In this document: positions 17,015 to 34,645 of the stretch, piece by piece
How the letters are laid out: each line of letters opens with the position of its first letter
Numbering within the stretch: position 1 is the first letter of the stretch
Made by a program: the position numbers and the translations under genes
The notes under the pieces: model-generated
The model's input: only the letters and a program-made list of their open reading frames with translations
Databases searched by the model: none
Told to the model about the DNA's origin: nothing
Source: an uncultured Dehalococcoidia bacterium
Lineage (GTDB): Bacteria; Chloroflexota; Dehalococcoidia; UBA6926
Direction: 5' to 3'
Assembly (NCBI GenBank): GCA_964405845.1
Contig: CAYOPL010000012.1
Coordinates: 95,583 to 159,582, forward strand
Length of the DNA stretch: 64,000 nucleotides

Positions 17015-17092
17015 AGTAGCTGTAACTATCCCGTAACTATTCGACCGACTCCCCATCACTTCTTGTAACCATCCACCAAAATACGCATAATT
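17015..17092 (+). promoter_or_regulatory. Regulatory cassette copy E, which includes a good sigma70-like promoter (TTGTAA-N17-CATAAT) for the hybrid kinase/regulator gene. The sites are gctgtaactatcc / ccgtaactattcg / cttgtaaccatcc.
   Basis: The -35 TTGTAA lies at 17063-17068 and the -10 CATAAT at 17086-17091, with a 17-nt spacer. The same triple-repeat layout is seen in copies A-D. Confidence 0.5.
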
Positions 17093-17171
17093 GCCCGTAG
17101 AAACGCAGACTCCAACGCCCACTAGGGACGAAACCCACGGGGTATCCCGAGGCCCATTAAGAGGTGACAAG

Positions 17172-19535
17172 TTGAGTCAACAAGACCAGCTGATGCGAGA
17201 GGTGGCGGAGCTTCGAGAGCGTCTCTCCAGGCTGAGCGAGGCTGGCTTCCGCATCAACGAGAGCTTGGACTTCGACACGGTGTTGCAGGAGGTGGTGGAC
17301 AGCGCCCGGACGCTGACCGACTCACGCTACGGGGCGATCACCATCCCGGGCGAGGTCTTCCGACGCCCCACGTTCATCACCTCTGGTCTGACCGAGGAGG
17401 AGCACCAGGGGCTGTGGGACATGCAGGAGGGACTGGGGTTCTTCGAGTATCTCAGCGGCCTGGAGGAGCCCCTGCGGGTCTCTGATATCGACAGCCATCT
17501 GAAGGCATTGAACATGCCTGCATTCCTGCCCTCGGTGGTGGTGAGTTCCGTGCTGGTAGCCCCGATACGCCATCAGGGAGTTGGTGTGGGCACCATCTAT
17601 CTCGCTCATGGCCCTGACGGTGGGGAGTTCACCCAGGAAGACGAGGACACGCTGGTCCTGTTCGCTTCCCAGGCGGCGATGGCCATCGCCAACGCTCGCA
17701 GGCACCGGGAAGAGCGGCGGGCTCGAGCAGACCTGGAGACCCTCTTGGAGGCGTCCCCCGTTGGCGTCGTAATCCTCGATGCCGTCATGGGAGTGCCGAA
17801 ATCCTTCAACAAGGAAGCTAGGAGAATCGTGGGCAGCCTGCTCAATCCTGACCAGTCCCCGGAGGACCTCATCGACCTGGTGACCTACAGGCGGGCCGAT
17901 GGTCGAGAGGTCACCCTGCGAGAGTTCCCGATGACCGAGATCCTCACCACCCGGGAGACCGTACGGGCCGAAGAGATCGTCATGAGTGTCCCGGACGGCC
18001 GCAGCGTCACTACCCTTGTTAACGCCACACCCATCTTCTCGGATGAAGGTGAAGTCGAGTCGGTAGTCGTCACTTTTCAGGACATGGCCAACGTGGAGGA
18101 GATGGCGCGGCTGCGAGCCGAATTCCTGGCGATGGTTAGTCACGAGTTGAGAACTCCTCTGACCTCCATTAAAGGTTCTGTCTCCACAATCATGGATGCG
18201 GGGGCGGACCTTGACCCCGCCGTGGCTCGCCAGTTCGTTCGGATTATCAATGACCAGGCCGACCACATGAACGCCCTGGTTGCAGACTTGCTCGACGTGG
18301 CCCGCATTGAGACGGGCACGCTGCCGGTTGATCCTGAGCCTGCCGAGGTGGCCGTATTGATGGACAGGGCGCGGAGCGCCTTCGTCAGTTCTTCGGGAGA
18401 CAGGAACAACTTCACAATAGACATCGAGCCGGATCTGCCTCTGGTGATGGCGGATAGGCGGCGCATCGTCCAGGTGCTGGGCAACCTGCTTTCTAACGCG
18501 GCGCGAAATTCCCCGGAGTCGGCGGTCATCAGGGTAACCGCTGTGCGGGATGGTGTTCATGTTGCGTTCTCTGTGGTCGACGAGGGACGCGGCATCCCGG
18601 CGGAGAGCCTGCCGCACCTGTTCCGCAAGTTCTATGGAGCGCAGTCCGAGGAGCAGGGAGGAGACACGGGGCTGGGTCTGGCCATCTGCAAGGGCATTGT
18701 GGAAGCGCATGGCGGCCGCATCTGGGCTGAGAGCGACGGGCCCGGAATGGGAGCGCGTTTCACCTTCACCCTTCCTGCGCTCGAAGACTCCGGAAACGAC
18801 ACAGCCGGTAGATTCCCGCCGGTCTCAACGCGACGTGAAGAAAGGGAAGAGGAGCGGCTGCGCGTTCTGGCCGTGGACGACGACCCCAACGATCTCCGCT
18901 ACGTTCGTGACACTCTTGCTAGGTCGGGCTATGCCCCCATCTTGACCGGAGACCCGGAGGAGGCGCTCCGTCTCGTGGAGGAGGAGAAGCCGGAACTCGT
19001 GTTGCTTGATCTGATGCTCCCGGAAACGGACGGCATCGAGCTGATGAAGGACATCCTCGATGTGACCGATGTGCCGGTTATCTTCCTGTCCGCCTACGGA
19101 CGAGAAGAGCTCATCGCCAGGGCCTTCGACATGGGGGCCACCGATTACGTCGTGAAGCCCTTCTCCCCCACGGAACTCTCAGCCAGGATCAGGGCGGCCC
19201 TGCGAAGACGCGCGGCCGCAGAGCCGACAAAACCTTACGTGCTCGGCGATCTGACCGTCGACTACGCCGGGCGCAGGGTGACCCTCGCCGGGAATCCTGT
19301 CCATCTCACACCGACTGAATATCGGGTGCTGGCCGAACTCTCGGCCAGCGCAGGACAGGTGATGACATATGAGCGCCTTCTCGTTCAGGTTTGGGGCGAG
19401 AAAAGCGACGGTGACGTGCGCCCAATGCGCACTATCGTGAACAAGCTCCGCCGCAAGCTGGGAGAGGACGCGGAAACCCCCACCCGCATCTTCACCGAAC
19501 CCCGCGTCGGCTACCGTATGCCGAAAGGCGAGTAG
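17172..19535 (+). CDS. Single-protein two-component system. The domain order is coiled-coil/GAF - PAS - HisKA - HATPase_c (sensor histidine kinase) - REC receiver - OmpR/PhoB-type winged-helix DNA-binding domain.
   Basis: The H-box reads EFLAMVSHELRTPLTSI, and the ATPase region contains GLGLAICKGIVEAHGGRIWAESDGPGMGARFTFTLP. The REC domain reads LAVDDDPNDLRYVRDTLARSGYAPILTGDPEEALRLVEEEKPELVLLDLMLPETDGIEL. The trans_reg_C region reads LTPTEYRVLAELSASAGQVMTYERLL...VRPMRTIVNKLRRKL...RVGYRMP. The probable start is TTG 17172 (SD AAGAGGTGA upstream) or ATG 17193; the track ORF begins at an in-frame TTG at 17091. Confidence 0.85.
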   Translation: MSQQDQLMREVAELRERLSRLSEAGFRINESLDFDTVLQEVVDSARTLTDSRYGAITIPGEVFRRPTFITSGLTEEEHQGLWDMQEGLGFFEYLSGLEEPLRVSDIDSHLKALNMPAFLPSVVVSSVLVAPIRHQGVGVGTIYLAHGPDGGEFTQEDEDTLVLFASQAAMAIANARRHREERRARADLETLLEASPVGVVILDAVMGVPKSFNKEARRIVGSLLNPDQSPEDLIDLVTYRRADGREVTLREFPMTEILTTRETVRAEEIVMSVPDGRSVTTLVNATPIFSDEGEVESVVVTFQDMANVEEMARLRAEFLAMVSHELRTPLTSIKGSVSTIMDAGADLDPAVARQFVRIINDQADHMNALVADLLDVARIETGTLPVDPEPAEVAVLMDRARSAFVSSSGDRNNFTIDIEPDLPLVMADRRRIVQVLGNLLSNAARNSPESAVIRVTAVRDGVHVAFSVVDEGRGIPAESLPHLFRKFYGAQSEEQGGDTGLGLAICKGIVEAHGGRIWAESDGPGMGARFTFTLPALEDSGNDTAGRFPPVSTRREEREEERLRVLAVDDDPNDLRYVRDTLARSGYAPILTGDPEEALRLVEEEKPELVLLDLMLPETDGIELMKDILDVTDVPVIFLSAYGREELIARAFDMGATDYVVKPFSPTELSARIRAALRRRAAAEPTKPYVLGDLTVDYAGRRVTLAGNPVHLTPTEYRVLAELSASAGQVMTYERLLVQVWGEKSDGDVRPMRTIVNKLRRKLGEDAETPTRIFTEPRVGYRMPKGE

Positions 19536-19712
19536 CCGGCGAACAATAAAACCTCGTTGTTCCTGCACCTTTCCCGGCTGGATGACTCAGACCAAAACTA
19601 CGACTAACTTCCGGCCGATAGTGATGTAGTAGCCGCTATTGACGCAGTAAAGGTAAAGGCGACCTGACCCGAAAGGCTGGCGTAACCAACCCAGCCCAAT
19701 TACAGCAAAAAA

Positions 19713-19784
19713 TACCCCTGCCGGGACTCGAACCCGGGCCACCAGCTCCGGAGGCTGGTGCTCTATCCGCTGAGCTACAGGGGC
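19713..19784 (-). tRNA. tRNA-Arg (anticodon CCG).
   Basis: The reverse complement GCCCCTGTAGCTCAGCGGATAGAGCACCAGCCTCCGGAGCTGGTGGCCCGGGTTCGAGTCCCGGCAGGGGTA folds as a cloverleaf. The anticodon loop CUCCGGA carries the anticodon CCG, and the T-loop reads GGTTCGAGTCC. CCA is not encoded. Confidence 0.9.
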
Positions 19785-19830
19785 ATGATTACGCCTTGCG
19801 GCGCCCCACCATCATACCCCGCTCAGTTGG

Positions 19831-21220: not shown

Positions 21221-21625
21221 GTGCAGAAAAAGGATCGACAGACAGGCCCAACTACCCGTTCTAGGCGCGGGTTGCACGCCCAAAATCTCGCCCGCCGACG
21301 CCTTGAATCCGAGGGTTTCCGCACTCTGGCGGAGAACGTCCGCTACCGCGCCGGAGAGCTCGATATCGTTGGCCTCATCGATGAGACGCTTGTGGCCGTT
21401 GAAGTGCGCAGCCGCTCTACGCCCAACGTTGGCACACCGGAGGAGTCCGTCACTCCCGCCAAGGCTGCCCGCCTCGCACGCCTCATCGAGACATACCGGC
21501 AGCATCACGAAACCGAACGTCTACCGGAACACACCCGCATCGATATCGTCGCCGTCGTCTTTGACCGGCGGGGTAGGCTCATGCGGCTCACCTGGCATAA
21601 AAACGCCATTCAGGACGTACGCTAG
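21221..21625 (+). CDS. YraN family (UPF0102) restriction-endonuclease-fold protein.
   Basis: HAQNLARRRLESEGFRTLAENVRYRAGELDIVGLIDETLVAVEVRSRS... matches the YraN pattern (GEIDLI...VFVEVK). Confidence 0.7.
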   Translation: MQKKDRQTGPTTRSRRGLHAQNLARRRLESEGFRTLAENVRYRAGELDIVGLIDETLVAVEVRSRSTPNVGTPEESVTPAKAARLARLIETYRQHHETERLPEHTRIDIVAVVFDRRGRLMRLTWHKNAIQDVR

Positions 21626-21709: not shown

Positions 21710-21973
21710 ATGCCAATCTACGAATTCAAGTGCGATGACTGCAGTCGAGACACCAGCGTCTTCACCCGCTCCGTCTCCGCCCCCATCGGCGACCCCACGT
21801 GCCGCCACTGCGGCGGCAAGTCCCTGCGACGCAAGGTCTCGCGTGTTGCCGTCGTTCGCTCGCGACAGGATCTCTACCGCGACTATGACCGCCTCTCCGC
21901 CTTTGATGACGCGCCGAGTGATGATGATTACGATGGGACGGATGACGGCTACTTCGATGACGGGTACGATTAA
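21710..21973 (+). CDS. FmdB-family zinc-ribbon protein (putative regulatory protein) with an acidic D/Y-rich C-terminal tail.
   Basis: MPIYEFKCDDCSRDTSVFTRSV...CRHCGG shows the CxxC...CxxC motif. The tail reads DDAPSDDDYDGTDDGYFDDGYD. Confidence 0.75.
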   Translation: MPIYEFKCDDCSRDTSVFTRSVSAPIGDPTCRHCGGKSLRRKVSRVAVVRSRQDLYRDYDRLSAFDDAPSDDDYDGTDDGYFDDGYD

Positions 21974-22011: not shown

Positions 22012-22368
22012 ATGCCCATTTATGAATTCACCTGTAACGAGTGCGGCAAGCGCTCCTCCACCTTCTATAAGGTCATGCCGGAGGAGCTGCCTACCAATCA
22101 GGAATGTGCCCATTGCGGCTCCACCAAGACCGAGAAGGTCATGTCCCGTGCCGCATATGTCCGCTCCACCGCCTCCCGTCATGAGGCCTCCGGTGATCCC
22201 GATGCCCCCGGCTATGACTACTGGCGTGACCCGTCAAACATCGGCCGATGGGCTGAGAAGCGCATGGACGAGGCTGGGATTGAGATGCCTGATCGCGTCA
22301 AAGAAATGATTGGCCAGGCCCGCGAAGGCGAAGTCGACAAAATCCTCGACAAGCGCGGCTTGGACTAA
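22012..22368 (+). CDS. FmdB-family zinc-ribbon protein; a paralogue of the upstream gene.
   Basis: MPIYEFTCNECGKRSSTFYKV...CAHCGSTKTEKVMSRAAYV is present. Confidence 0.75.
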   Translation: MPIYEFTCNECGKRSSTFYKVMPEELPTNQECAHCGSTKTEKVMSRAAYVRSTASRHEASGDPDAPGYDYWRDPSNIGRWAEKRMDEAGIEMPDRVKEMIGQAREGEVDKILDKRGLD

Positions 22369-22532: not shown

Positions 22533-23363
22533 ATGTCCTTGATCCCACCCGCATTCATGGACAAAGTCGTTGCTCTGGGCACGCCGGACAACGAAGGGAA
22601 CATACGGTACGCCGCCTCAGGTTTCTTGTACGGACAACCGTCAGGGCATCAGGGCAGATACTACGTTTATCTTGTAACGAATCGTCACGTCGTAACGGGG
22701 ATACGCAGCCCTCAGATACGCTTCAATGCACTTGCCGGGGCTGCTCCCAGGATCCTGCCATTGCCTCCGAATGACGGTGGCCCAAATGATCACTGGATCT
22801 TCCACCCCGACCCGGAGATTGACGTTGCCGTTCTGCTCATAGACTCCCTTGGGCAGACTCTGAAGGATGTCAAGGTTGCATTCTTCACGAGCAACGGACA
22901 GACAGAATTCCTGGACTCTATGAGGGATGGTTCTGTCTCCGAAGGAGACGAGGTTTTCGTGCTCGGCTTTCCTCTCGGACTGGCTGGTGCTGAACGGAAC
23001 TACGCGATCGTGCGCCAGGGAGTTATCGCCCGAATTCAGGACTGCTATGAGCGGCGCTCCAAGGAGTTCTTGATAGATTCCTTTGTCTTTCCGGGCAATA
23101 GCGGAGGCCCGGTCATCCTCAAACCGACCATGTTCTCGTATGGCCAGACGCGCCCGGACCCCAAATTGATTGGCGTTGTAGCTGCCTATCAGCCGTACGT
23201 TGACGTCGCGCTGAGCGAGCAAACAGGAAAGCCCCGGCTTATCGTGCAGGAGAACTCGGGACTCGCCACCGTAATGCCCGTCGATGTGATTCAGGAGACC
23301 GTCAAGTTGGCTGCGGAACGGTATGGAATCAGCCAACCCTCCCCATCCGGCATTCCCGCGTAG
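22533..23363 (+). CDS. Cytoplasmic trypsin-like (S1/chymotrypsin-fold) serine peptidase.
   Basis: No signal peptide is present. The His region reads YVYLVTNRHVVTG, the Asp region IDVAVLLID, and the Ser motif FPGNSGGPVIL. Confidence 0.7.
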   Translation: MSLIPPAFMDKVVALGTPDNEGNIRYAASGFLYGQPSGHQGRYYVYLVTNRHVVTGIRSPQIRFNALAGAAPRILPLPPNDGGPNDHWIFHPDPEIDVAVLLIDSLGQTLKDVKVAFFTSNGQTEFLDSMRDGSVSEGDEVFVLGFPLGLAGAERNYAIVRQGVIARIQDCYERRSKEFLIDSFVFPGNSGGPVILKPTMFSYGQTRPDPKLIGVVAAYQPYVDVALSEQTGKPRLIVQENSGLATVMPVDVIQETVKLAAERYGISQPSPSGIPA

Positions 23364-23493
23364 GCGGGAATCTGACACGCCCCACAACCCGCCACGCCGC
23401 CTTTTCCTCTTGTATCCTTATAGCTGAGCGTCGTTGGCACACTCAACGTCGCCCGCTGCGCAATATCCCGGATTCTGATGGAGGCCTCGCCAC

Positions 23494-24816
23494 GTGACCA
23501 TTGAGCCGACGCTGACCGATATGAACACGATCGTTTCGCTCGCCAAGCGACGCGGATTCGTGTTCCCCGCCAGCGAGATCTACGGCGGCATCGGCTCGTC
23601 GTGGGACTATGGCCCCCTCGGCGTGGAGCTCAAGCGCAACGTGCGTGATGCATGGTGGCGCGCGATGGTCCAGGAGCGGGATGACGTCGTTGGCCTTGAT
23701 AGTGCTATCATCCAGAGTCCCCTCGTGTGGGAGGCGAGCGGCCACGTCGCTGGTTTCACGGACCCGCTGATTGAATGCCGTAGCTGCCACCGCCGCCAAC
23801 GCGCCGACCACATCGAGAATGACACGTGCCCGGACTGTGGAGAGGTGGGACAGTTCACGGAGCCGCGACAGTTCAACCTCATGTTCAAGACTTTTCTTGG
23901 GCCGGTGGAAGAGGACGCGGCAGTCGCGTTCCTCCGGCCGGAGACCGCGCAGGGCATCTTCACGAACTTCGAGAACGTGAGAACGGCCACGCGCAAGAAA
24001 ATCCCTTTTGGAATTGCGCAAACGGGTAAATCCTTCCGAAATGAAATTACAACGGGAAACTTTATATTTCGCACCCGCGAGTTCGAACAAATGGAGATGG
24101 AATACTTCGTCCGACCTGAGGACGGATTTTCCTCTCTGGAATACTGGCGTATTGAGCGGATGCGATGGTACACGGATCTCGGCATCAACCCGGAGCGCCT
24201 GCGCTTTCGCCAGCATGATCAGGACGAGCTCGCCCACTACGCCGCCGCCGTCTATGACATTGAGTACCTGTTCCCAATCGGCTGGTCGGAATTGGAGGGC
24301 ATCGCCTACCGCGGTGACTTTGACCTCCGCCAGCACCAGGACAGTTCTGGCCGGAAGCTTGAATACTTCGATGACGAACGACAGGAGCGGTTCATACCTC
24401 ACGTCGTGGAACCCGCCAGCGGCGTCGATCGCTGCCTGCTCGCCTTCCTCGTTGACGGCTACACGGAAGAAGAAGTGAACGGAGAGAGCCGGACCGTGCT
24501 CAAGCTGCACCGCGATCTCGCTCCCTACAAGGTCGCCGTGCTACCCCTCTCCCGCAATCAGAAACTCCTGCCAAAGTCGCGGGAAGTCTATGACATCGTC
24601 CGCCGCCGCTGGATGACCGACTATGATGATTCCCAGTCCATCGGTCGCCGCTATCGCCGGCAGGACGAAATCGGCACGCCGTATTGCGTCACCATCGACT
24701 TCCAGACAGTTGAGGAAGACGACGCTGTCACCGTCCGCGACCGTGACACGATGGAGCAGGTGCGCGTCCCAATCGCTGAGCTTGGCGCGCTGCTAGAGGA
24801 CCGTCTGACGGGGTAG
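23494..24816 (+). CDS. glyQS: Glycine--tRNA ligase (class II, alpha2 dimeric GlyQS type).
   Basis: The N-terminus VSLAKRRGFVFPASEIYGGIGSSWDYGPLGVELKRNVRDAWWRAMV is characteristic. The start is GTG and the protein is 440 aa. Confidence 0.85.
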   Translation: MTIEPTLTDMNTIVSLAKRRGFVFPASEIYGGIGSSWDYGPLGVELKRNVRDAWWRAMVQERDDVVGLDSAIIQSPLVWEASGHVAGFTDPLIECRSCHRRQRADHIENDTCPDCGEVGQFTEPRQFNLMFKTFLGPVEEDAAVAFLRPETAQGIFTNFENVRTATRKKIPFGIAQTGKSFRNEITTGNFIFRTREFEQMEMEYFVRPEDGFSSLEYWRIERMRWYTDLGINPERLRFRQHDQDELAHYAAAVYDIEYLFPIGWSELEGIAYRGDFDLRQHQDSSGRKLEYFDDERQERFIPHVVEPASGVDRCLLAFLVDGYTEEEVNGESRTVLKLHRDLAPYKVAVLPLSRNQKLLPKSREVYDIVRRRWMTDYDDSQSIGRRYRRQDEIGTPYCVTIDFQTVEEDDAVTVRDRDTMEQVRVPIAELGALLEDRLTG

Positions 24817-24853
24817 GGGATACTGCGCCACCACGGGCGTTCTCACACTGCCC

Positions 24854-26632
24854 ATGCGAATCATCCACTTTGCCGACGCGCACATCGGCGTTGAGACCCA
24901 CAGCCGTCCCGTCACCTCGGACGAACTCAACGCCCTGCCGGACTCTTTCGCCCCGGGCGTAAACCGCGCCGCTACCTACACGGGTATGCCGTCCCGCCTC
25001 GTTGATGCCCTCCGCGCCTTTGATGAACTTGTTGATTTCGCCCTGACGGAACCCCGCGCCGATCTCGTCGTCTTTTCCGGCGACGCCTATCGCTCACGAG
25101 ACCCGTCCCAAACCCATCAGCGGGAATTCGCCCGCCGCATCAGCCGTCTTGCCCTTGCCGGTATCCCCGTCTTTCTTCTGACCGGCAACCATGACGTGCC
25201 CAACACGGAGGGCAGGGCAACAGCGCTGGATATCTTTGATGCCCTCGCCGTCGACAACGTCACGGTTGCCTCCCGCCCCGCCGTTCACCGTATTGAAACT
25301 GCGGCCGGCCCTGTCCAGATTGTTGCCGTCCCGTGGTTGCGTCGCAGTGCCGCCGCCGCGCGCGCAGAATTGCACGGCAAGAGCTCTGCGGAAGTCAATG
25401 ATTGGATGCAGAGTTTCCTAAGCAATGAAATCAACCGCATGGCCGGAGAACTTGATCCAGCCGTGCCGTCTATCCTGTCTGCCCACGCCACCGCCACCAC
25501 GGCTACCATCGGCCATGAACGCAGCATGATGATGGGCAACGACTACCTGCTGCTGCCCAGCGCCTTCCAAACACATCCCATTGACTACGCTGCTCTGGGC
25601 CACATCCATCGCCACCAGCAAATCGCTGACTCCCCACCTGTCGTCTACTCCGGCAGCCTCCACCGTGTCGATTTCTCTGAAGAAGATGACAACAAGGGTT
25701 TCTGTGTCGTGGACATTGATTCCGCTCTCCCGCCCGGCCGCCGTGCTGCCTCGTGGTCGTTCCATCCAGTCTGGACGCGCCCGTTCAAGACAATCAAAAT
25801 TGCCGTCCGTGCCGGTGAGCAGGATGTAATGGGGACGATTGCCGTCCGCCTTGCCGCTGCAGACGTGCAAGATGCCGTAGCCCGCGTGGAAATCGAAGCC
25901 CCCTCCGAACTCGCGGGCGACATAGACCGCGTCCGCATTCGCAATTTAGTGCGGCAGGCCGGGGCGCACGCGGTTTCGGGAGTCACGGTGCAGGTCGACG
26001 CGCCGGATAGAACACGAACCCGTCTTGATCGCGGCATGGCAATTGAATCACTTGAACCTGAACAAGCCCTCAGCCTCTATATGGACAAATCATCAATTGC
26101 CACTGAGCGCCGTACAGTGCTCATGCAAGCGGCCCGTGAGATTATCAACACGAATCAGATGGGGCAGGGAGCTGACGTGGAAGATCAGGCGGACGTGGTG
26201 GTCCGAATCGCCGAGTCGGACGACATGGAGGCGATCTTCGCCCTCCGTCGCGTCGTCTTTATCGATGAGCAGAACGTAGACGCCGACGAAGAGTGGGATG
26301 GACGCGATGAGGACGCCGTCCACGCAGTGGCTCTAACAGAGGGTGAGGTCGTTGGTACGGGCCGCCTGCTAACGGACGAGGGAGAGGAAACGTGCCGTAT
26401 TGGCCGCATGGCCGTTCGACAAGACCTCAGGCGACACGGAATCGGCGACAGGATCCTGGCAGTGCTGGAAGACGCCGCTCAGGAACGCGGCTTTGCTCAG
26501 GTTCACCTAAACGCCCAGACTTACGTTAAAGACTTCTACGCCCAGGCCGGCTACGCAGAACACGGCGAAACATTCATGGAAGCCGGCATTGAGCACGTAG
26601 CCATGACGAAGGATCTACCCCGCTCCTCGTAG
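24854..26632 (+). CDS. SbcD/Mre11-type calcineurin-like metallophosphoesterase nuclease fused to a C-terminal GNAT N-acetyltransferase domain.
   Basis: The nuclease motifs are MRIIHFADAHIG (motif I), VVFSGDAYRS, LLTGNHD and ALGHIHRHQ. The C-terminal 150 aa read EAIFALRRVVFIDEQNV...CRIGRMAVRQDLRRHGIGDRILAVLEDAAQERGFAQVHLNAQ, a GNAT acetyl-CoA motif A. No sbcC lies adjacent. Confidence 0.7.
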   Translation: MRIIHFADAHIGVETHSRPVTSDELNALPDSFAPGVNRAATYTGMPSRLVDALRAFDELVDFALTEPRADLVVFSGDAYRSRDPSQTHQREFARRISRLALAGIPVFLLTGNHDVPNTEGRATALDIFDALAVDNVTVASRPAVHRIETAAGPVQIVAVPWLRRSAAAARAELHGKSSAEVNDWMQSFLSNEINRMAGELDPAVPSILSAHATATTATIGHERSMMMGNDYLLLPSAFQTHPIDYAALGHIHRHQQIADSPPVVYSGSLHRVDFSEEDDNKGFCVVDIDSALPPGRRAASWSFHPVWTRPFKTIKIAVRAGEQDVMGTIAVRLAAADVQDAVARVEIEAPSELAGDIDRVRIRNLVRQAGAHAVSGVTVQVDAPDRTRTRLDRGMAIESLEPEQALSLYMDKSSIATERRTVLMQAAREIINTNQMGQGADVEDQADVVVRIAESDDMEAIFALRRVVFIDEQNVDADEEWDGRDEDAVHAVALTEGEVVGTGRLLTDEGEETCRIGRMAVRQDLRRHGIGDRILAVLEDAAQERGFAQVHLNAQTYVKDFYAQAGYAEHGETFMEAGIEHVAMTKDLPRSS

Positions 26633-27292
26633 CCACTCGGAGCCGCCGTCCCACACCTCGCGCTTCCACACAGGCGCCAGCGCCTTCACCTTTTCCACAG
26701 CCTCCCGGCACGCGTCAAAGGCCGCGCGGCGATGCGGCGATGCCACCGCCACCACCAGCGATGTCTCCCCAATCTCGAGCCGTCCCGTCCGATGCCACAG
26801 CGCGATGCTGCCAATGTCAAAGTCCTCGAGCGTCTCGCGCCCAATCCTCCGCAGCACGCTCTCGGCCATCTCCGGGTATGCCTCATATTCAAGGAAGAGC
26901 ACGTGACGCCCAAGATTGTTGTTCCGCACGATGCCTTCAAACGTCAGTACAGCGCCGTCGGATGAAGCCTTGAGCGACTCCGCAATCTTCAAGGCGTCCA
27001 GCGCATCAGCCGTCACCCCTACCTGAACTGCCTCCGCCTCGGAGACGGCCCCTCCGCTCACGGGAGGAATCAGCGCGACCTCATCGCCCGCCGAGAGAGT
27101 GGTTGATTGATCGACATATTCTTGGTTGACGGCAACAACAACGCCGTCGCAACGGTTCGCCAATGCTGGATGCTGCCGCTGCGCCTCGCCTAGCAGGCGC
27201 GAGACCGGCTCGCCCTCCGGAATCTCAACGCTGATTTCAGAAGCGCCCACTGCTTCTCGCAGTGCCGCAAACAGCCTTACGCGAACGTCCAT
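26615..27292 (-). CDS. moaDE: Fused MoaD-MoaE molybdopterin synthase (sulfur-carrier subunit plus catalytic subunit).
   Basis: MDVRVRLFAALREAVGASEISVEIPEGEPVSRLLG...ALIPPVSGG is MoaD with the GG terminus. The following MoaE domain reads VLTFEGIVRNNNLGRHVLFLEYEAYPEMAE...ETSLVVAVASPHRRAAFDACREAVEKVKALAPVWKRE. The start was refined to the ATG at 27292. Confidence 0.8.
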   Translation of the reverse strand: MDVRVRLFAALREAVGASEISVEIPEGEPVSRLLGEAQRQHPALANRCDGVVVAVNQEYVDQSTTLSAGDEVALIPPVSGGAVSEAEAVQVGVTADALDALKIAESLKASSDGAVLTFEGIVRNNNLGRHVLFLEYEAYPEMAESVLRRIGRETLEDFDIGSIALWHRTGRLEIGETSLVVAVASPHRRAAFDACREAVEKVKALAPVWKREVWDGGSEWLRGAG

Positions 27293-27425
27293 GCGGCCAT
27301 TATAGGCGTCGGTTCTCGCCGATTGTGATGCTTGACACAAATTCGCGCTGACAGATAGACTCGCAATGTCGTGGCGACGACGCAACATCAGTTGTTGAGG
27401 TATTGCTCTGAACAGGCTCAACCGA

Positions 27426-28553
27426 ATGGGGAAAGGGACTCAACTAATCGGAGTGCTGACGGTTTTTATGGCCGTCGTTCTCCTCTCAGGCTGCCAGTTG
27501 GCGTTGCCGCAGAGCACGCTCCATCCGGCAGGAGACGTAGCCCAGACTCAACAGAACCTCTTTGTCTTTATCTTCTGGATTGCCGTCGCCATCTTTATCG
27601 GCGTTCAGGGCTTCCTTACCATCGCCGTGCTCAAGTACCGTGCCAGGCGTGGTCGCGAAAGTGACATCCCGCCCCAGACTCACGGCAACACTCCTCTGGA
27701 AATCGGCTGGACAATTGCTCCTTCCTTAATCGTTATCGCCATCACTATCCCAACGGTCGCGGGCATCGGCGCAACGTATGATCCCCCGTCCCAATATGCT
27801 GATGACCCTTCCCTCACCATTGAGGTCGTTGGCCACCAATGGTGGTGGGAGTACCGCTATCTGGATGAGAACGGCGACCTTGATTTCACCACTGCCAATG
27901 AATTGCACATCCCCGTCGATACCGTCATCAAGCTCAAGCTCTCCTCGAACGACGTCATTCACAGTTTCTCCGTTCCACGCCTCGCGGGCAGCCGTGACGT
28001 CGTGCCCGGTCGCGTCAACCGCATGTGGTTGAACGCGACGGAAACCGGCGTCTACGCGGGGCAGTGTAAGGAGTTCTGTGGAGATTCACACGCTTTGATG
28101 CGTACGGTCGCCTTTGCCCGTGAACTTGACGACTACGAAGCATGGGCCGCCAATGAGCGCCGCCCGGCAGTCAACATGACTGCCGCCATGGAACCCGGCT
28201 GGGCGGTCTTTGTGGACAAGGGTTGCCGGAGCTGCCACAGCATCAGTGGTGAGACCGAAGACGAGTACGAACTAGCTATCGGCCTGAAGGCTCCGAACCT
28301 GAGCCACTTCGGGTCCCGCGTGACCATCGCCGCCAATACCCTCCATAAGGGTCCGGCGGATATCAATATGGGCGCATTCTTTGCGGATGTCCCGACTGAT
28401 CCGGACTTCATGCAGCGCGACCCGGCGGCAGAGAACCTGCGACAGTGGCTCGATAATGCGCCGGACGTGAAGCCCGGCACTGAGATGCCTGACCATGAAT
28501 TCACCGACCAAGAGCTTGATGATCTCGTATTCTTCCTGGAGAGCCTGAAGTAA
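27426..28553 (+). CDS. ctaC: Cytochrome c oxidase subunit II (caa3-type) with a C-terminal cytochrome c domain.
   Basis: A signal/lipoprotein-like N-terminus and 2 TM are present. The CuA site is H..GQCKEFCGDSHALM, and the heme c site is CRSCHSI. Confidence 0.88.
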   Translation: MGKGTQLIGVLTVFMAVVLLSGCQLALPQSTLHPAGDVAQTQQNLFVFIFWIAVAIFIGVQGFLTIAVLKYRARRGRESDIPPQTHGNTPLEIGWTIAPSLIVIAITIPTVAGIGATYDPPSQYADDPSLTIEVVGHQWWWEYRYLDENGDLDFTTANELHIPVDTVIKLKLSSNDVIHSFSVPRLAGSRDVVPGRVNRMWLNATETGVYAGQCKEFCGDSHALMRTVAFARELDDYEAWAANERRPAVNMTAAMEPGWAVFVDKGCRSCHSISGETEDEYELAIGLKAPNLSHFGSRVTIAANTLHKGPADINMGAFFADVPTDPDFMQRDPAAENLRQWLDNAPDVKPGTEMPDHEFTDQELDDLVFFLESLK

Positions 28554-31853: not shown

Positions 31854-32744
31854 ATGAATGACCTGGGTGATTACCTGCTCGCGTGGTCGTGGGAGCCGCT
31901 AACTCTGTTCTTCGTCGGCCTCCTCGGATTCGCCTACGTCAGGGGACTGCGAGGCCTTAATCCGATTAAGGTTCGCGTGGTCACAAATTGGCGTGCCATG
32001 TCCTTTGCGACAGGCCTGACCGTGCTCCTACTCGCCCTCATTTCACCCATCGATACCCTCGGCGGTCGACTGTTCGCCTTCCACATGACCCAGCACATGC
32101 TCCTGATGCACGTCGCCGTGCCGCTGATTCTACTGGGCGCGCCGGTTCTCCCAGTTGCCCGCGGCATGGGGTACGGAATTCGCAGACTAACCCTCATCAA
32201 GCTCGCCAGAGCTCCCCAGGTGCGCTTCATCTTTCATATCCTCATCCACCCTCTCGTTGGCTTGGCAGTCTTCGTGGGCGTTATCTGGTCATGGCACGTC
32301 CCGGGAGCCTACGCCGCCGCCGTCACCAACGACTTCGCTCACATCGGCCAGCACGCCAGCTTCATTACTGCCGCAACACTCTTCTGGTGGGCCATCATCG
32401 ACCCGACACCCATCCGGGGCAAAATTCCCTACTTGGCCCGACTCGTCGTCGTCGTGATGGCGCTGTCGCTGACGTTCCCTCTGGCCGCGATGCTGACATT
32501 TGCGGCAAATCCTTGGTATGCCCCCTACATCGGTCAGGAACCACTCTGGGGAATCGACTCCATGACTGACCAGCAGATCGGTGGACTCATCATGTGGGTC
32601 GGCGGGATCGCGCCCTACTTCCTTGCCATTGCCGGCCTGTTCATCGTTGCAGTCCGGCGTGATGAAGAGGACACGCGCCGCTCGCGTGCCGCCCTCTACA
32701 ACAACTCGCCCAATCATGTGCCGCATAGGCCGGCGACCACGTGA
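31854..32744 (+). CDS. Caa3-type cytochrome oxidase assembly factor CtaG-like membrane protein.
   Basis: It is a 7-TM protein with conserved His clusters (FHMTQHMLLMH, FAHIGQHASF). Operon context supports the call. Confidence 0.55.
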   Translation: MNDLGDYLLAWSWEPLTLFFVGLLGFAYVRGLRGLNPIKVRVVTNWRAMSFATGLTVLLLALISPIDTLGGRLFAFHMTQHMLLMHVAVPLILLGAPVLPVARGMGYGIRRLTLIKLARAPQVRFIFHILIHPLVGLAVFVGVIWSWHVPGAYAAAVTNDFAHIGQHASFITAATLFWWAIIDPTPIRGKIPYLARLVVVVMALSLTFPLAAMLTFAANPWYAPYIGQEPLWGIDSMTDQQIGGLIMWVGGIAPYFLAIAGLFIVAVRRDEEDTRRSRAALYNNSPNHVPHRPATT

Positions 32745-34645
32745 TGTCCGGTACGCTTCAAAGCGCCGAATTGCGCTACCGCAAGACACTGCTGGGGCTC
32801 GCGTTAGCAGCGGCAATCACAACTGTCTTCCTGATCAGCCTTGGCAGTTTCGTGCGCGTCACGGGCTCCGGCCTCGCCTGCCCGGACTGGCCGCTGTGCC
32901 ACGGCAGCATCATCCCGCCGTTCGAATACCACGTCCTCATCGAATACTCCCACCGTCTCACGGCAGCCATAGTCGGCCTGCTCGTGGCCGCGATGTTCGT
33001 CGTGGCCTTCCTCGCGTCACGCGCCAACGAGCAGCCAACCCGGCGAGCGCTTATCCCTGCCGCAATCACACTCGTTGTCATGCTCACGCAGGCAGGTTTG
33101 GGCGGCGTGGCCGTCATAACGGAACTCCCGCCGCCAATCGTCACCCTTCACCTATTCCTCGCCGAAGCCATTCTTGCCCTGCTAATTGTGACCATGATGG
33201 CTGCCGCGCCCGGACGGACAACGCCCGCAGATGGGCAGGGCATCTCCCTCCGGGATGCCCGCAAGCTGTACATCTGGGCCGCCGTCGCCGCCTTCATGAC
33301 TCTCGTGATGATTCTCTCCGGCTCCTACGTCGTGGCTGAAGAGGCAACACTTGCCTGTGGCAGCGGCTTCTCCGCGTGGCCTCTCTGCGACGGCGCAATC
33401 ATGCCCAGCGGATTCGACCCCAACATCCACATGGGACACCGGTACATGGTTGTCATTGGAACCCTGACCACCGGCTACGTCGCGTTTCTCTCATGGCGTC
33501 AGAAAGAAAGAGATCGCATGATCAGCCGGGTAGGGCAGGCCACACTTCACCTGCTTGCCGTGCAGATTGTCATCGGCGCGCTCGTGCCGTGGACCGAGTT
33601 CCACCATGCCGCCCGTGTCGCCCACATCACTCTTGCCTCGCTGACGTGGGCTGCAGCCGTCCTTCTCGTTATACTCGCCGCCCGTGCAAGAGCATCCGGT
33701 ACCGAAAACGACGAAACGCCTGCATCCGCTCAGATGCCCCCCGCCCCCGCGGGGGGATCGGGATTCGCGCCGACTTTCTCTCTGAGAGGTGTCGCGTCCG
33801 ACTACTTCTGGCTGACCAAGCCGCGCGTTATGGTGCTCCTGCTGCTGACCGCGCTTGGAGGAATGGTGCTGGCGGCACAAGGCCTGCCGACACTAACCGT
33901 CGCCGTCGCCGTTCTGCTTGGCGGCGCGCTGGCATCCGGCGGCGCAGGAGCCATCAATCACGGCCTTGAAGGACACATCGACTCCGCAATGATGAGAACG
34001 CGTCATCGCCCCGTCGCGAGTGGTCGAGTCAGCCCCCGCATGGCAATCGGCTACGGTATTGCCCTCAACGTGTTTGCCTTTGTCGTGCTGGCAGGCGGAG
34101 CGAATGTCCTCGCCGCGTCTATCACCCTGAGCGGATCGCTCTTCTACGTCTTCGTCTACACGCTCTGGCTCAAGCAAACGACGGTGCAGAACATCGTCAT
34201 CGGCGGAGCAGCAGGAGCAGTCCCACCCCTCGTTGGCTGGGCGGGTGTGACTAACGATCTGAGCATGCCCGCCATCTACCTATTCCTGATCATCTTCTTT
34301 TGGACACCGCCTCATTTCTGGGCGCTCTCTCTGATGATCAAGGACGACTATGAGCGAGCCAGCGTGCCGATGATGCCGGTCGTCCTCGGCGAGGAGAGCA
34401 CGCGAACCAGCATCTTCCTCTACACGATCTTGGTGAATATACTCGCGCTGCTGCTCTACCTCTCAACAATGAGCCTCAGCGAAGTCTACCTCGCAGGTGC
34501 AATCGCGCTGGGAGGAATGTTTACCTACTACGCTTACCGACTTCTCAAGGAAAAGGATCGGCCCGCCGCCCTGCGCCTCTACAAGTACTCCCTGCTGTAC
34601 CTGGCCCTGCTCTTCCTCGCAATAATGATCGACCAGGTCGTGTAG
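32741..34645 (+). CDS. ctaAB: Fusion of heme A synthase (CtaA/COX15) with protoheme IX farnesyltransferase (CtaB/CyoE, heme O synthase).
   Basis: The N-terminal half contains GSGLACPDWPLCHG and a second C..C pair (CGSGFSAWPLCDG), as in CtaA. The C-terminal half is a UbiA-family prenyltransferase (YFWLTKPRVMVLLLLTALGG...DxxxD-like). Confidence 0.8.
   Translation: MMSGTLQSAELRYRKTLLGLALAAAITTVFLISLGSFVRVTGSGLACPDWPLCHGSIIPPFEYHVLIEYSHRLTAAIVGLLVAAMFVVAFLASRANEQPTRRALIPAAITLVVMLTQAGLGGVAVITELPPPIVTLHLFLAEAILALLIVTMMAAAPGRTTPADGQGISLRDARKLYIWAAVAAFMTLVMILSGSYVVAEEATLACGSGFSAWPLCDGAIMPSGFDPNIHMGHRYMVVIGTLTTGYVAFLSWRQKERDRMISRVGQATLHLLAVQIVIGALVPWTEFHHAARVAHITLASLTWAAAVLLVILAARARASGTENDETPASAQMPPAPAGGSGFAPTFSLRGVASDYFWLTKPRVMVLLLLTALGGMVLAAQGLPTLTVAVAVLLGGALASGGAGAINHGLEGHIDSAMMRTRHRPVASGRVSPRMAIGYGIALNVFAFVVLAGGANVLAASITLSGSLFYVFVYTLWLKQTTVQNIVIGGAAGAVPPLVGWAGVTNDLSMPAIYLFLIIFFWTPPHFWALSLMIKDDYERASVPMMPVVLGEESTRTSIFLYTILVNILALLLYLSTMSLSEVYLAGAIALGGMFTYYAYRLLKEKDRPAALRLYKYSLLYLALLFLAIMIDQVV

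Follow-up and report, generated by a model that had tools for sequence, protein, structure and literature searches.

The window, as we call the whole stretch of 64,000 nucleotides analysed here, comes from an uncultured Dehalococcoidia bacterium of the Chloroflexota (GenBank assembly GCA_964405845.1, contig CAYOPL010000012.1, positions 95,583 to 159,582 of the forward strand) and contains a gene that joins a nuclease of the SbcD/Mre11 family to an acetyltransferase of the GNAT type. Our work indicates that this gene, sbcD::GNAT, is a real and selectively maintained fusion in one clade of uncultured Dehalococcoidia-like Chloroflexota. A first-pass annotation of the same DNA had proposed a fusion whose two halves both retain their characteristic motifs, and had named no described architecture of this kind. 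Both statements are borne out: the open reading frame is continuous and the motif residues are invariant, and a fusion of SbcD/Mre11 with GNAT was not found in the searchable literature. The fused sequences are already public, and their names conceal the second domain: the only name that the databases give to the fused proteins is 'exonuclease subunit SbcD [Chloroflexi bacterium]'. The parts of the gene are as follows:

24854..26632, + strand: the whole sbcD::GNAT fusion gene, a single open reading frame with an ATG start and 592 codons plus stop.
24854..25723, + strand: SbcD/Mre11 metallophosphoesterase (nuclease) core, residues 1-290, defined by Pfam, TIGR00619, AlphaFold2, Foldseek and invariant metal-ligand residues.
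25724..26008, + strand: capping domain, residues about 291-385, beta strands plus helices in the AlphaFold2 model, which superposes on Mre11/SbcD nuclease plus capping structures.
26051..26155, + strand: C-terminal helix-loop-helix, residues about 400-434 (helices 402-412 and 417-438), defined by AlphaFold2, Foldseek and a sequence signature.
26156..26200, + strand: disordered acidic/Gly-rich linker, residues about 435-449, variable, with a predicted local distance difference test score (pLDDT) below 50 at 435-445 and a high ratio of non-synonymous to synonymous substitutions (dN/dS).
26201..26617, + strand: GNAT domain of the ElaA/YjcF/SACOL1063 type, residues 450-588, defined by Pfam, PDB matches, Foldseek and invariant residues.
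26429-26446, + strand: acetyl-CoA loop RRHGIG, residues 526-531, corresponding to the motif R/Q-x-x-G-x-G/A.

Motifs, fold and the subfamily cut-off all place the N-terminal part in the SbcD/Mre11 family. The metallophosphoesterase motifs reported for it at first reading are present: FADAHIG (with D8 and H10), SGDAYR (D77), GNHD (111-114) and GHIH (249-252), and in an alignment of 30 fused homologues D8, H10, D77, N112, H113, H211, H250 and H252 are invariant. The Pfam domain Metallophos covers residues 1-253 with 47.5 bits, above its gathering score, and the NCBIfam subfamily model TIGR00619 ('sbcd', 'exonuclease subunit SbcD') covers residues 1-281 with 143.2 bits against a cut-off of 77.65. 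The equivalog models for characterised E. coli, Bacillus, Staphylococcus or archaeal proteins are missed, both those for SbcD (NF008206, 63 vs 450; NF041753, 50 vs 480; NF041754, 42 vs 750) and those for Mre11 (33-52 bits against cut-offs of 500-600). The AlphaFold2 model of the fusion protein, which was built from a 109-sequence alignment and has a mean pLDDT of 89.6 and a predicted template modelling score (pTM) of 0.66, places the capping domain at about 298-382 and contains a lower-confidence stretch that separates it from the two C-terminal helices. When this model was compared to the PDB with Foldseek, the top match, with E=2e-20 and 452 aligned columns, was the Mre11 protein of Thermotoga maritima in its complex with Rad50 (3tho_B). 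The alignments to full-length Mre11/SbcD chains that were solved as complexes (3tho_B, 3qg5, 6s6v) cover 447-459 columns, and Escherichia coli SbcD from the SbcCD head complexes (6s6v, 7yzo) is matched across about 450 columns; the match thus extends through the C-terminal helix-loop-helix. The nuclease plus capping fold of the predicted structure is recognized with a Foldseek probability of 1.00 and target-normalised template modelling (TM) scores of 0.7-0.8 to 2q8u, 4lty and 7dog. The N-terminal 435 residues are therefore a complete, motif-intact SbcD/Mre11 protein with a nuclease core, a capping domain and a C-terminal helix-loop-helix. The last of these is predicted to be an SbcC-binding module; its signature R.R..L.P...L..Y...R...L...A is equally conserved in the SbcC-linked, orphan and fused groups of SbcD.

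The protein has much in common with the canonical SbcCD/Mre11-Rad50 nucleases (E. coli SbcD, 4lty, 6s6v and 7yzo; T. maritima Mre11, 3tho and 3qg5): the six phosphoesterase motifs, the nuclease plus capping fold, and a predicted C-terminal helix-loop-helix, the module which in the solved complexes binds the base of the Rad50/SbcC coiled coil. The Foldseek alignments to these nucleases span about 450 columns, and their E-values range from 1e-20 to 1e-15. It differs from them in its low sequence identity of 18-24% and its sub-equivalog score (63 vs 450 bits for the E. coli-type SbcD), in the lack of an adjacent sbcC gene, and in the extra GNAT domain after the helix-loop-helix.

The C-terminal GNAT domain with the motif RRHGIGDRIL (526-535), as recognized in the first-pass annotation, is confirmed by Pfam models that match residues 472-588 above their gathering scores (Acetyltransf_10, 63.3 vs 23.6; Acetyltransf_1, 50.1 vs 20.7; Acetyltransf_7, 43.8 vs 27). 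Among the 30 fused homologues, R526, G531 and Y562 are invariant, as is the family motif R465..V468-F469..E472-Q473, and R527 is at least 90% conserved. Residues 449-587 form a compact GNAT in the AlphaFold2 model. Foldseek aligns it with SACOL1063 of Staphylococcus aureus in complex with CoA (5jph; TM 0.90-0.91, root mean square deviation 1.8 Å, 30% identity), a match that has an E-value of 1e-19, and with YjcF of Bacillus subtilis (1q2y; TM 0.88, 35% identity), and a sequence search of the PDB also returns 3efa, E. coli ElaA (5z6n) and PA0115 (1xeb). The top NCBIfam GNAT model, the ElaA-like NF007644, scores 47.1 bits and does not reach its equivalog cut-off of 171. We assign the domain to the ElaA/YjcF/SACOL1063 group, not as an ElaA equivalog: It has the R..VF..EQ and RxxGxG motifs in common with the members of this group (5jph/5jq4, 1q2y, 3efa, 5z6n, 1xeb), and differs from them in being covalently joined to a nuclease.

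Is the junction of the two halves real? The possibility had been raised that a frameshift or a missed stop codon at 26090-26200 makes two genes look like one. The frame is continuous in the window, and a homologue search recovered at least 36 full-length fused clusters (560-624 amino acids, 92% down to 49% identity) that have the same reading frame. The linker of these homologues is 10-26 residues long and variable in sequence, and no fused form has a stop codon in it. In pairwise Nei-Gojobori comparisons of the window with the relatives L001 and L009, dN/dS was 0.04-0.05 in the nuclease core and 0.08-0.09 in both the capping plus C-terminal region and the GNAT; in the linker (14 codons), it was about 0.8 or higher. 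In some close relatives the two halves are indeed encoded by separate genes in the same slot between glyQS and moaDE, and every observed natural split falls exactly in the linker, which could speak for two genes merged by a sequencing or assembly error. However, each of the four splits has a mutation of its own: one is a nonsense change, and the others are three indels that differ from each other. In L006, sbcD is followed by a 166-amino acid GNAT gene with a TGATG stop/start overlap; the overlap is ATGA in L008, which has 3x coverage, and ATGGATGA in L094; and in L009, whose flanks are 96-97% identical to those of the fused L001, one CAG codon of the linker has become the stop codon TAG, and a GTG start follows 9 nt later. 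Since the independent fused clusters come from many assemblies and keep a continuous, length-variable linker, and since both domains are under purifying selection, an artefact is excluded for all practical purposes.

The linker of the window gene contains, at 26165-26200, a purine-rich GGGAG located 5 nt upstream of an in-frame GTG (V442), and this GTG is the start codon of the GNAT gene in the split relative L009. It is conceivable from the sequence that internal initiation could yield free GNAT from the fused mRNA.

The fusion has a narrow distribution. In an exhaustive HMMER search of 1.84 billion representatives clustered at 50% identity, the SbcD-GNAT architecture was found in one full-length representative (P0029) and in two fragments that span the junction (P0362, P0367). 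For the rest of the top 150 matches, the best alignment does not reach the GNAT core but stops by about residue 452 of the query, and none of them shows an SbcD-GNAT join. This survey indicates that the architecture is rare and clade-restricted. The fusion is confined to one clade nested inside the Dehalococcoidia-type Chloroflexota and is not widespread. A scan of species genomes with the fused alignment gave no fusion among the matches listed, only plain SbcDs at no more than 45% identity, and the nearest plain SbcDs among these matches are mostly from metagenome-assembled genomes titled Dehalococcoidia. Two of the fused proteins carry the NCBI label 'Chloroflexi bacterium', and it is the SbcD tree that suggests a placement of the clade in Dehalococcoidia. 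The plasmid collection contained no fusion and only distant SbcDs with 25-30% identity. In another representative, P0487, residues 26-398 resemble SbcD and are 33% identical to the protein of the window; with a total length of 1143 amino acids and thus about 750 further residues, P0487 may be an SbcD-SbcC or other fusion.

The partner of SbcD in the canonical complexes, SbcC, is not encoded next to the fusion gene. The absence of SbcC had been presented as a feature of the fusion. As far as the window is concerned, this is correct: no SbcC/Rad50 was detected in the 64 kb, neither by Pfam on the 10 largest open reading frames (FtsK, an fn3 protein, a hybrid kinase, SulP, CtaA-CtaB, CcmF, UvrB, an amine oxidase, DUF2207 and NhaA) nor by phmmer and an SbcC hidden Markov model on all open reading frames of at least 100 amino acids. 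The probes were the SbcC proteins of E. coli, Euzebya and Salinibacter, each of which detected the others as a positive control, followed by a 16-sequence hidden Markov model; they were applied to these window frames and to the related loci L001-L090 with up to 10 kb of flank. Within the visible flanks, no SbcC was found in L001-L046, in the entire fused clade or in any Dehalococcoidia-type locus (at least 41% identity). The lack of an adjacent sbcC is thus a trait of the whole Dehalococcoidia-type SbcD clade that is older than the GNAT fusion. The plain orphan SbcDs of this clade (410-447 amino acids; P0071, P0050, P0119 and L011-L046) are 41-50% identical to the window protein and have the same C-terminus at about residue 435, most of them follow glyQS, and none has an adjacent sbcC; they differ from the window gene in that neither a GNAT gene nor a GNAT domain follows at the 3' end. 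Directly downstream of sbcD, sbcC was found in 13 loci, all of them distant relatives (33-40% identity) from Anaerolineae, Thermoflexales, Ardenticatenaceae and a few other phyla. Chloroflexota sbcD genes are mostly apart from sbcC, with linkage in 13 of the 80 loci listed (L011-L090), some of which have too little downstream flank for a judgement, and no description of orphan SbcD in Chloroflexota was found in the searchable literature. With a Chloroflexota SbcC (from L050) as the query, all 120 matches listed belonged to the lineage of L050 itself, and this search does not bear on the fused clade.

A second, less probable rival to our proposal on the function of the fusion (below) is that the genome has no SbcC at all: SbcD alone would then be a Mn-dependent dimeric nuclease or phosphodiesterase, possibly acting on a different class of substrates, and the GNAT would replace SbcC on the C-terminal helices. 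This idea, which is in part independent of the question what the GNAT acts on, is in line with the absence of SbcC from the window and from the 5-10 kb around sbcD in the fused clade and in the Dehalococcoidia-type orphans, and with the apparently small genomes of the clade (contigs of 1.96-2.07 Mb carry the fusion gene). Near-complete contigs of this kind in ENA are ERZ26167216 ctg495584_43.59x_c (1.96 Mb, probably circular to judge from the '_c' in its name), ERZ25069711 ctg17198 (2.07 Mb) and ERZ21861969 ctg21538l (1.99 Mb). However, an unbootstrapped neighbour-joining tree of SbcD shows linked and orphan genes intermingled among the Anaerolineae, and this pattern fits relocation of sbcC better than its loss. 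Moreover, the helix-loop-helix signature is conserved and under purifying selection in orphan and fused groups alike, and the same C-terminus is retained in all 430-amino acid orphans and in L002, a locus with sbcD and no GNAT. We therefore regard the absence of SbcC from the genome as unlikely. The conserved helices that are predicted to bind SbcC and the sbcC-linked distant members of the family suggest that SbcC is encoded elsewhere, so that the partner gene is probably unlinked rather than lost.

The surroundings of the fusion gene are conserved as well. The neighbours had been named as glyQS and moaDE, and these are the genes that we find:

23494..24816, + strand: glyQS, class II glycyl-tRNA synthetase, the conserved upstream neighbour, an open reading frame whose syntenic genes in relatives match tRNA-synt_2b and HGTP_anticodon.
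26615..27292, - strand: moaD-moaE fusion gene, the conserved convergent downstream neighbour, an open reading frame with a phmmer match.

The gap between glyQS and the fusion gene, which lie on the same strand, is 37 nt, and the 3' ends of the fusion gene and of moaD-moaE overlap by 18 nt. The order glyQS - sbcD(::GNAT) - moaDE - cox operon is common to the window, L001 (88% identity) and L003 (50% identity), and sbcD follows glyQS in most loci of the Dehalococcoidia-type clade. The 225-amino acid syntenic moaD-moaE genes of relatives have Pfam matches to ThiS and MoaE; the small and large subunits of molybdopterin synthase, MoaD and MoaE, are encoded by one gene of about 225 amino acids in all relatives. 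A second fusion in the window, of 634 amino acids (32741-34645, + strand), joins CtaA (COX15, haem A synthase) to CtaB (UbiA-type haem O synthase) and closes the cox cluster; it was also found in relatives. A scan of 23200-27700 for promoters and terminators gave no signal beyond the expectation from shuffled sequence. Upstream of glyQS, two tandem small genes of the Zn_ribbon_8 (FmdB-like) type, 87 and 118 amino acids long (21710-21973 and 22012-22368, + strand), are present throughout the fused clade, and the pair is preceded by a UPF0102 (YraN-like) gene (21221-21625). Farther away, the window encodes an 814-amino acid signalling protein (17091-19535, + strand) that unites GAF, PAS, HisKA, HATPase, receiver and Trans_reg_C DNA-binding domains in a single polypeptide; its L001 counterpart has 495 amino acids and no GAF/PAS matches. 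The sole RNA gene detected in the 64 kb is a tRNA-Arg(CCG) (19712-19785, - strand).

The relatives of the window allow a reconstruction of how the fusion arose. In the unbootstrapped SbcD tree, the fused clade is one group nested within the Dehalococcoidia-type orphan SbcDs, and the split and sbcD-only forms are nested among the fused forms. The GNAT halves likewise form a single fused plus split clade in an unbootstrapped neighbour-joining tree, apart from the standalone GNATs and with sub-groupings congruent with those of SbcD. The deep branches are fused forms, and the split forms are shallow tips. The simplest reading of these sequence relationships is a single capture of a standalone GNAT 3' of sbcD, its fusion, and then recurrent secondary splitting or loss. 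At the time of the capture, sbcD of this lineage would already have been located beside glyQS and apart from sbcC, and the two halves appear to have co-diverged since then. One fused-clade lineage has lost sbcD cleanly from the slot: In L095 (3585-5480), a GNAT gene that keeps a remnant of the linker starts 96 nt after glyQS, and tblastn detected no remnant of sbcD at this locus. The GNAT-only protein is present on 4 contigs.

For the function of the fusion, we propose, tentatively and with a probability of roughly 45%, that it is an SbcD subunit with an active GNAT tethered to it in stoichiometric amount, that this subunit probably works together with an unlinked SbcC, and that the acceptor of the GNAT is modified at or near the complex. 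The SbcD part would act as the usual Mn-dependent nuclease, most probably together with the SbcC encoded elsewhere. The GNAT would be an active acetyl-CoA-dependent transferase that is made in a 1:1 ratio with SbcD and is held just after the helices that sit at the base of the SbcC coiled coil, beside the ATPase head. It is this position next to the putative SbcC-binding helices that suggests the modification of an acceptor at or near the nuclease complex. Such a coupling would be beneficial without being obligatory: point mutations in the linker seem to have divided the gene again, on several occasions, into two genes with coupled translation, and the loss of either half is apparently tolerated.

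The main rival explanation is that the fusion is incidental: A GNAT landed 3' of sbcD in a compact genome and the stop codon was lost, a harmless event that brought at most co-expression, and the acceptor of the GNAT is a housekeeping compound without a role in DNA repair, for example a free amino acid, a polyamine or some other small amine. We consider this quite possible, albeit short of an even chance, and several observations speak for it and against a functional coupling. First, the locus with sbcD only (L002, in the glyQS-[ ]-moaDE slot) and the one with GNAT only (L095) occupy the same slot and indicate that neither half requires the other, and the halves have been separated on four independent occasions. 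Second, the nearest relatives of the GNAT outside the clade are a large family of standalone proteins of 143-148 amino acids with 48-57% identity, named 'predicted GNAT family N-acyltransferase' by JGI, and the one whose context was checked (L010) has no sbcD nearby; this closeness to many unlinked enzymes suggests a generic acceptor. Third, for SACOL1063, the closest relative that has been characterised, a weak in vitro acetylation of free threonine and some further amino acids is reported, and this is the sole activity reported for the nearest solved relative (PMC10267138). For ElaA, overexpression is toxic or growth-inhibiting, and ElaA itself was not assayed (PMC6199490). Fourth, the same subtype of GNAT has been joined to a second, unrelated enzyme domain: In MadA/YiiD, a SACOL1063-like domain is fused to a thioesterase (PMC8666670). 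In that case the partner is another one and the GNAT is at the N-terminus, so that no homology to the nuclease half of the window protein is implied, and the MadA protein is reported to decarboxylate malonyl-ACP (acyl carrier protein) and not to transfer acetyl groups (PMC8666670). Our proposal is further limited in that the AlphaFold2 model (pTM 0.66) gives no information on contacts between the domains, the trees of both halves are without bootstrap, and SbcC was detected for no genome of the fused clade in the window or the locus flanks. The first-pass suggestion that the fusion could couple DNA-end processing to acetylation is weakened by the split, sbcD-only and GNAT-only variants and by the similarity to standalone GNATs.

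What the incidental origin does not readily explain is the persistence of the fused state. A split can be reached by many single mutations in the relaxed linker and is hard to reverse, and split forms should thus accumulate under neutrality; yet fused forms are by far the more common, with at least 36 clusters vs 4 confirmed splits, and they span the deepest divergences of the clade. The persistence of the fusion over saturated synonymous divergence argues for some selective benefit. Moreover, stop and start codons still overlap in three of the four split pairs (L006, L008 and L094) and are only 9 nt apart in L009, and the other fusions of the window, MoaD-MoaE and CtaA-CtaB, unite functionally related partners. 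On balance, we prefer the proposal of a tethered GNAT that acts at or near the nuclease complex.

The regulation of SMC-family ATPases by lysine acetylation has a precedent: Eco1/ESCO acetylates the ATPase head of SMC3. The acetyltransferase domain of Eco1 is from another subfamily and has no nuclease attached to it, and the likeness is one of analogy only, in that the GNAT of the window protein would be tethered beside the expected position of the SMC-like SbcC head. It is tempting to speculate that the GNAT acetylates lysines of the SbcC ATPase head, SbcD itself or a protein that blocks DNA ends, and thus gates or tunes the nuclease by the acetyl-CoA level. This specific version of the proposal is unlikely. 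If true, such cis-acetylation would be a bacterial cis-acting counterpart of the Eco1-Smc3 regulation and a direct metabolic input to DNA-end processing.

Other functions were considered and rejected. A role in anti-phage defence does not agree with the conserved housekeeping synteny, and no family of the PADLOC defence-system protein models was matched at E <=0.01. A GNAT toxin of a type II toxin-antitoxin system (TacT/AtaT type) would call for a small partner gene, and the neighbours in the window are glyQS and moaDE, with no such gene beside them. The antitoxin-like candidate near the gene in relatives is a DUF6932 plus HTH_3 pair between the fusion or split gene and moaDE, which occurs only in L001 (L001:9902-10681) and L009 (L009:6540-7357) and is absent from the window; this pair may be a small cassette that is mobile or resembles a toxin-antitoxin system. 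Acetylation of aminoacyl-tRNA, for example, would link the GNAT to glyQS, and such a link was considered because SACOL1063 acetylates amino acids, because ElaA is toxic upon overexpression and because glyQS directly precedes the GNAT gene in L095. The adjacency of glyQS and sbcD is older than the GNAT, however, and we mention this link only as a thought of low probability.

The fusion is a modest variant and not a new system, since its halves are also found split or alone in close relatives. It is nevertheless a clean case of domain fusion in a narrow clade of uncultured bacteria, informative about evolution in that split and loss variants occur naturally, and it draws attention to the fact that in Dehalococcoidia-type Chloroflexota the 'orphan' sbcD is the rule and not the exception. 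If the fusion is incidental, it would chiefly be a cautionary example of how the annotation 'exonuclease subunit SbcD' can mask a second domain. If the GNAT acts on SbcCD or on what the complex processes, the window protein would be the first bacterial nuclease of the Mre11 type with an acetyltransferase of its own, it could offer a first functional handle on the ElaA/YjcF/SACOL1063 group of GNATs, and the fused, split, sbcD-only and GNAT-only variants would provide a natural comparative series to test its role.

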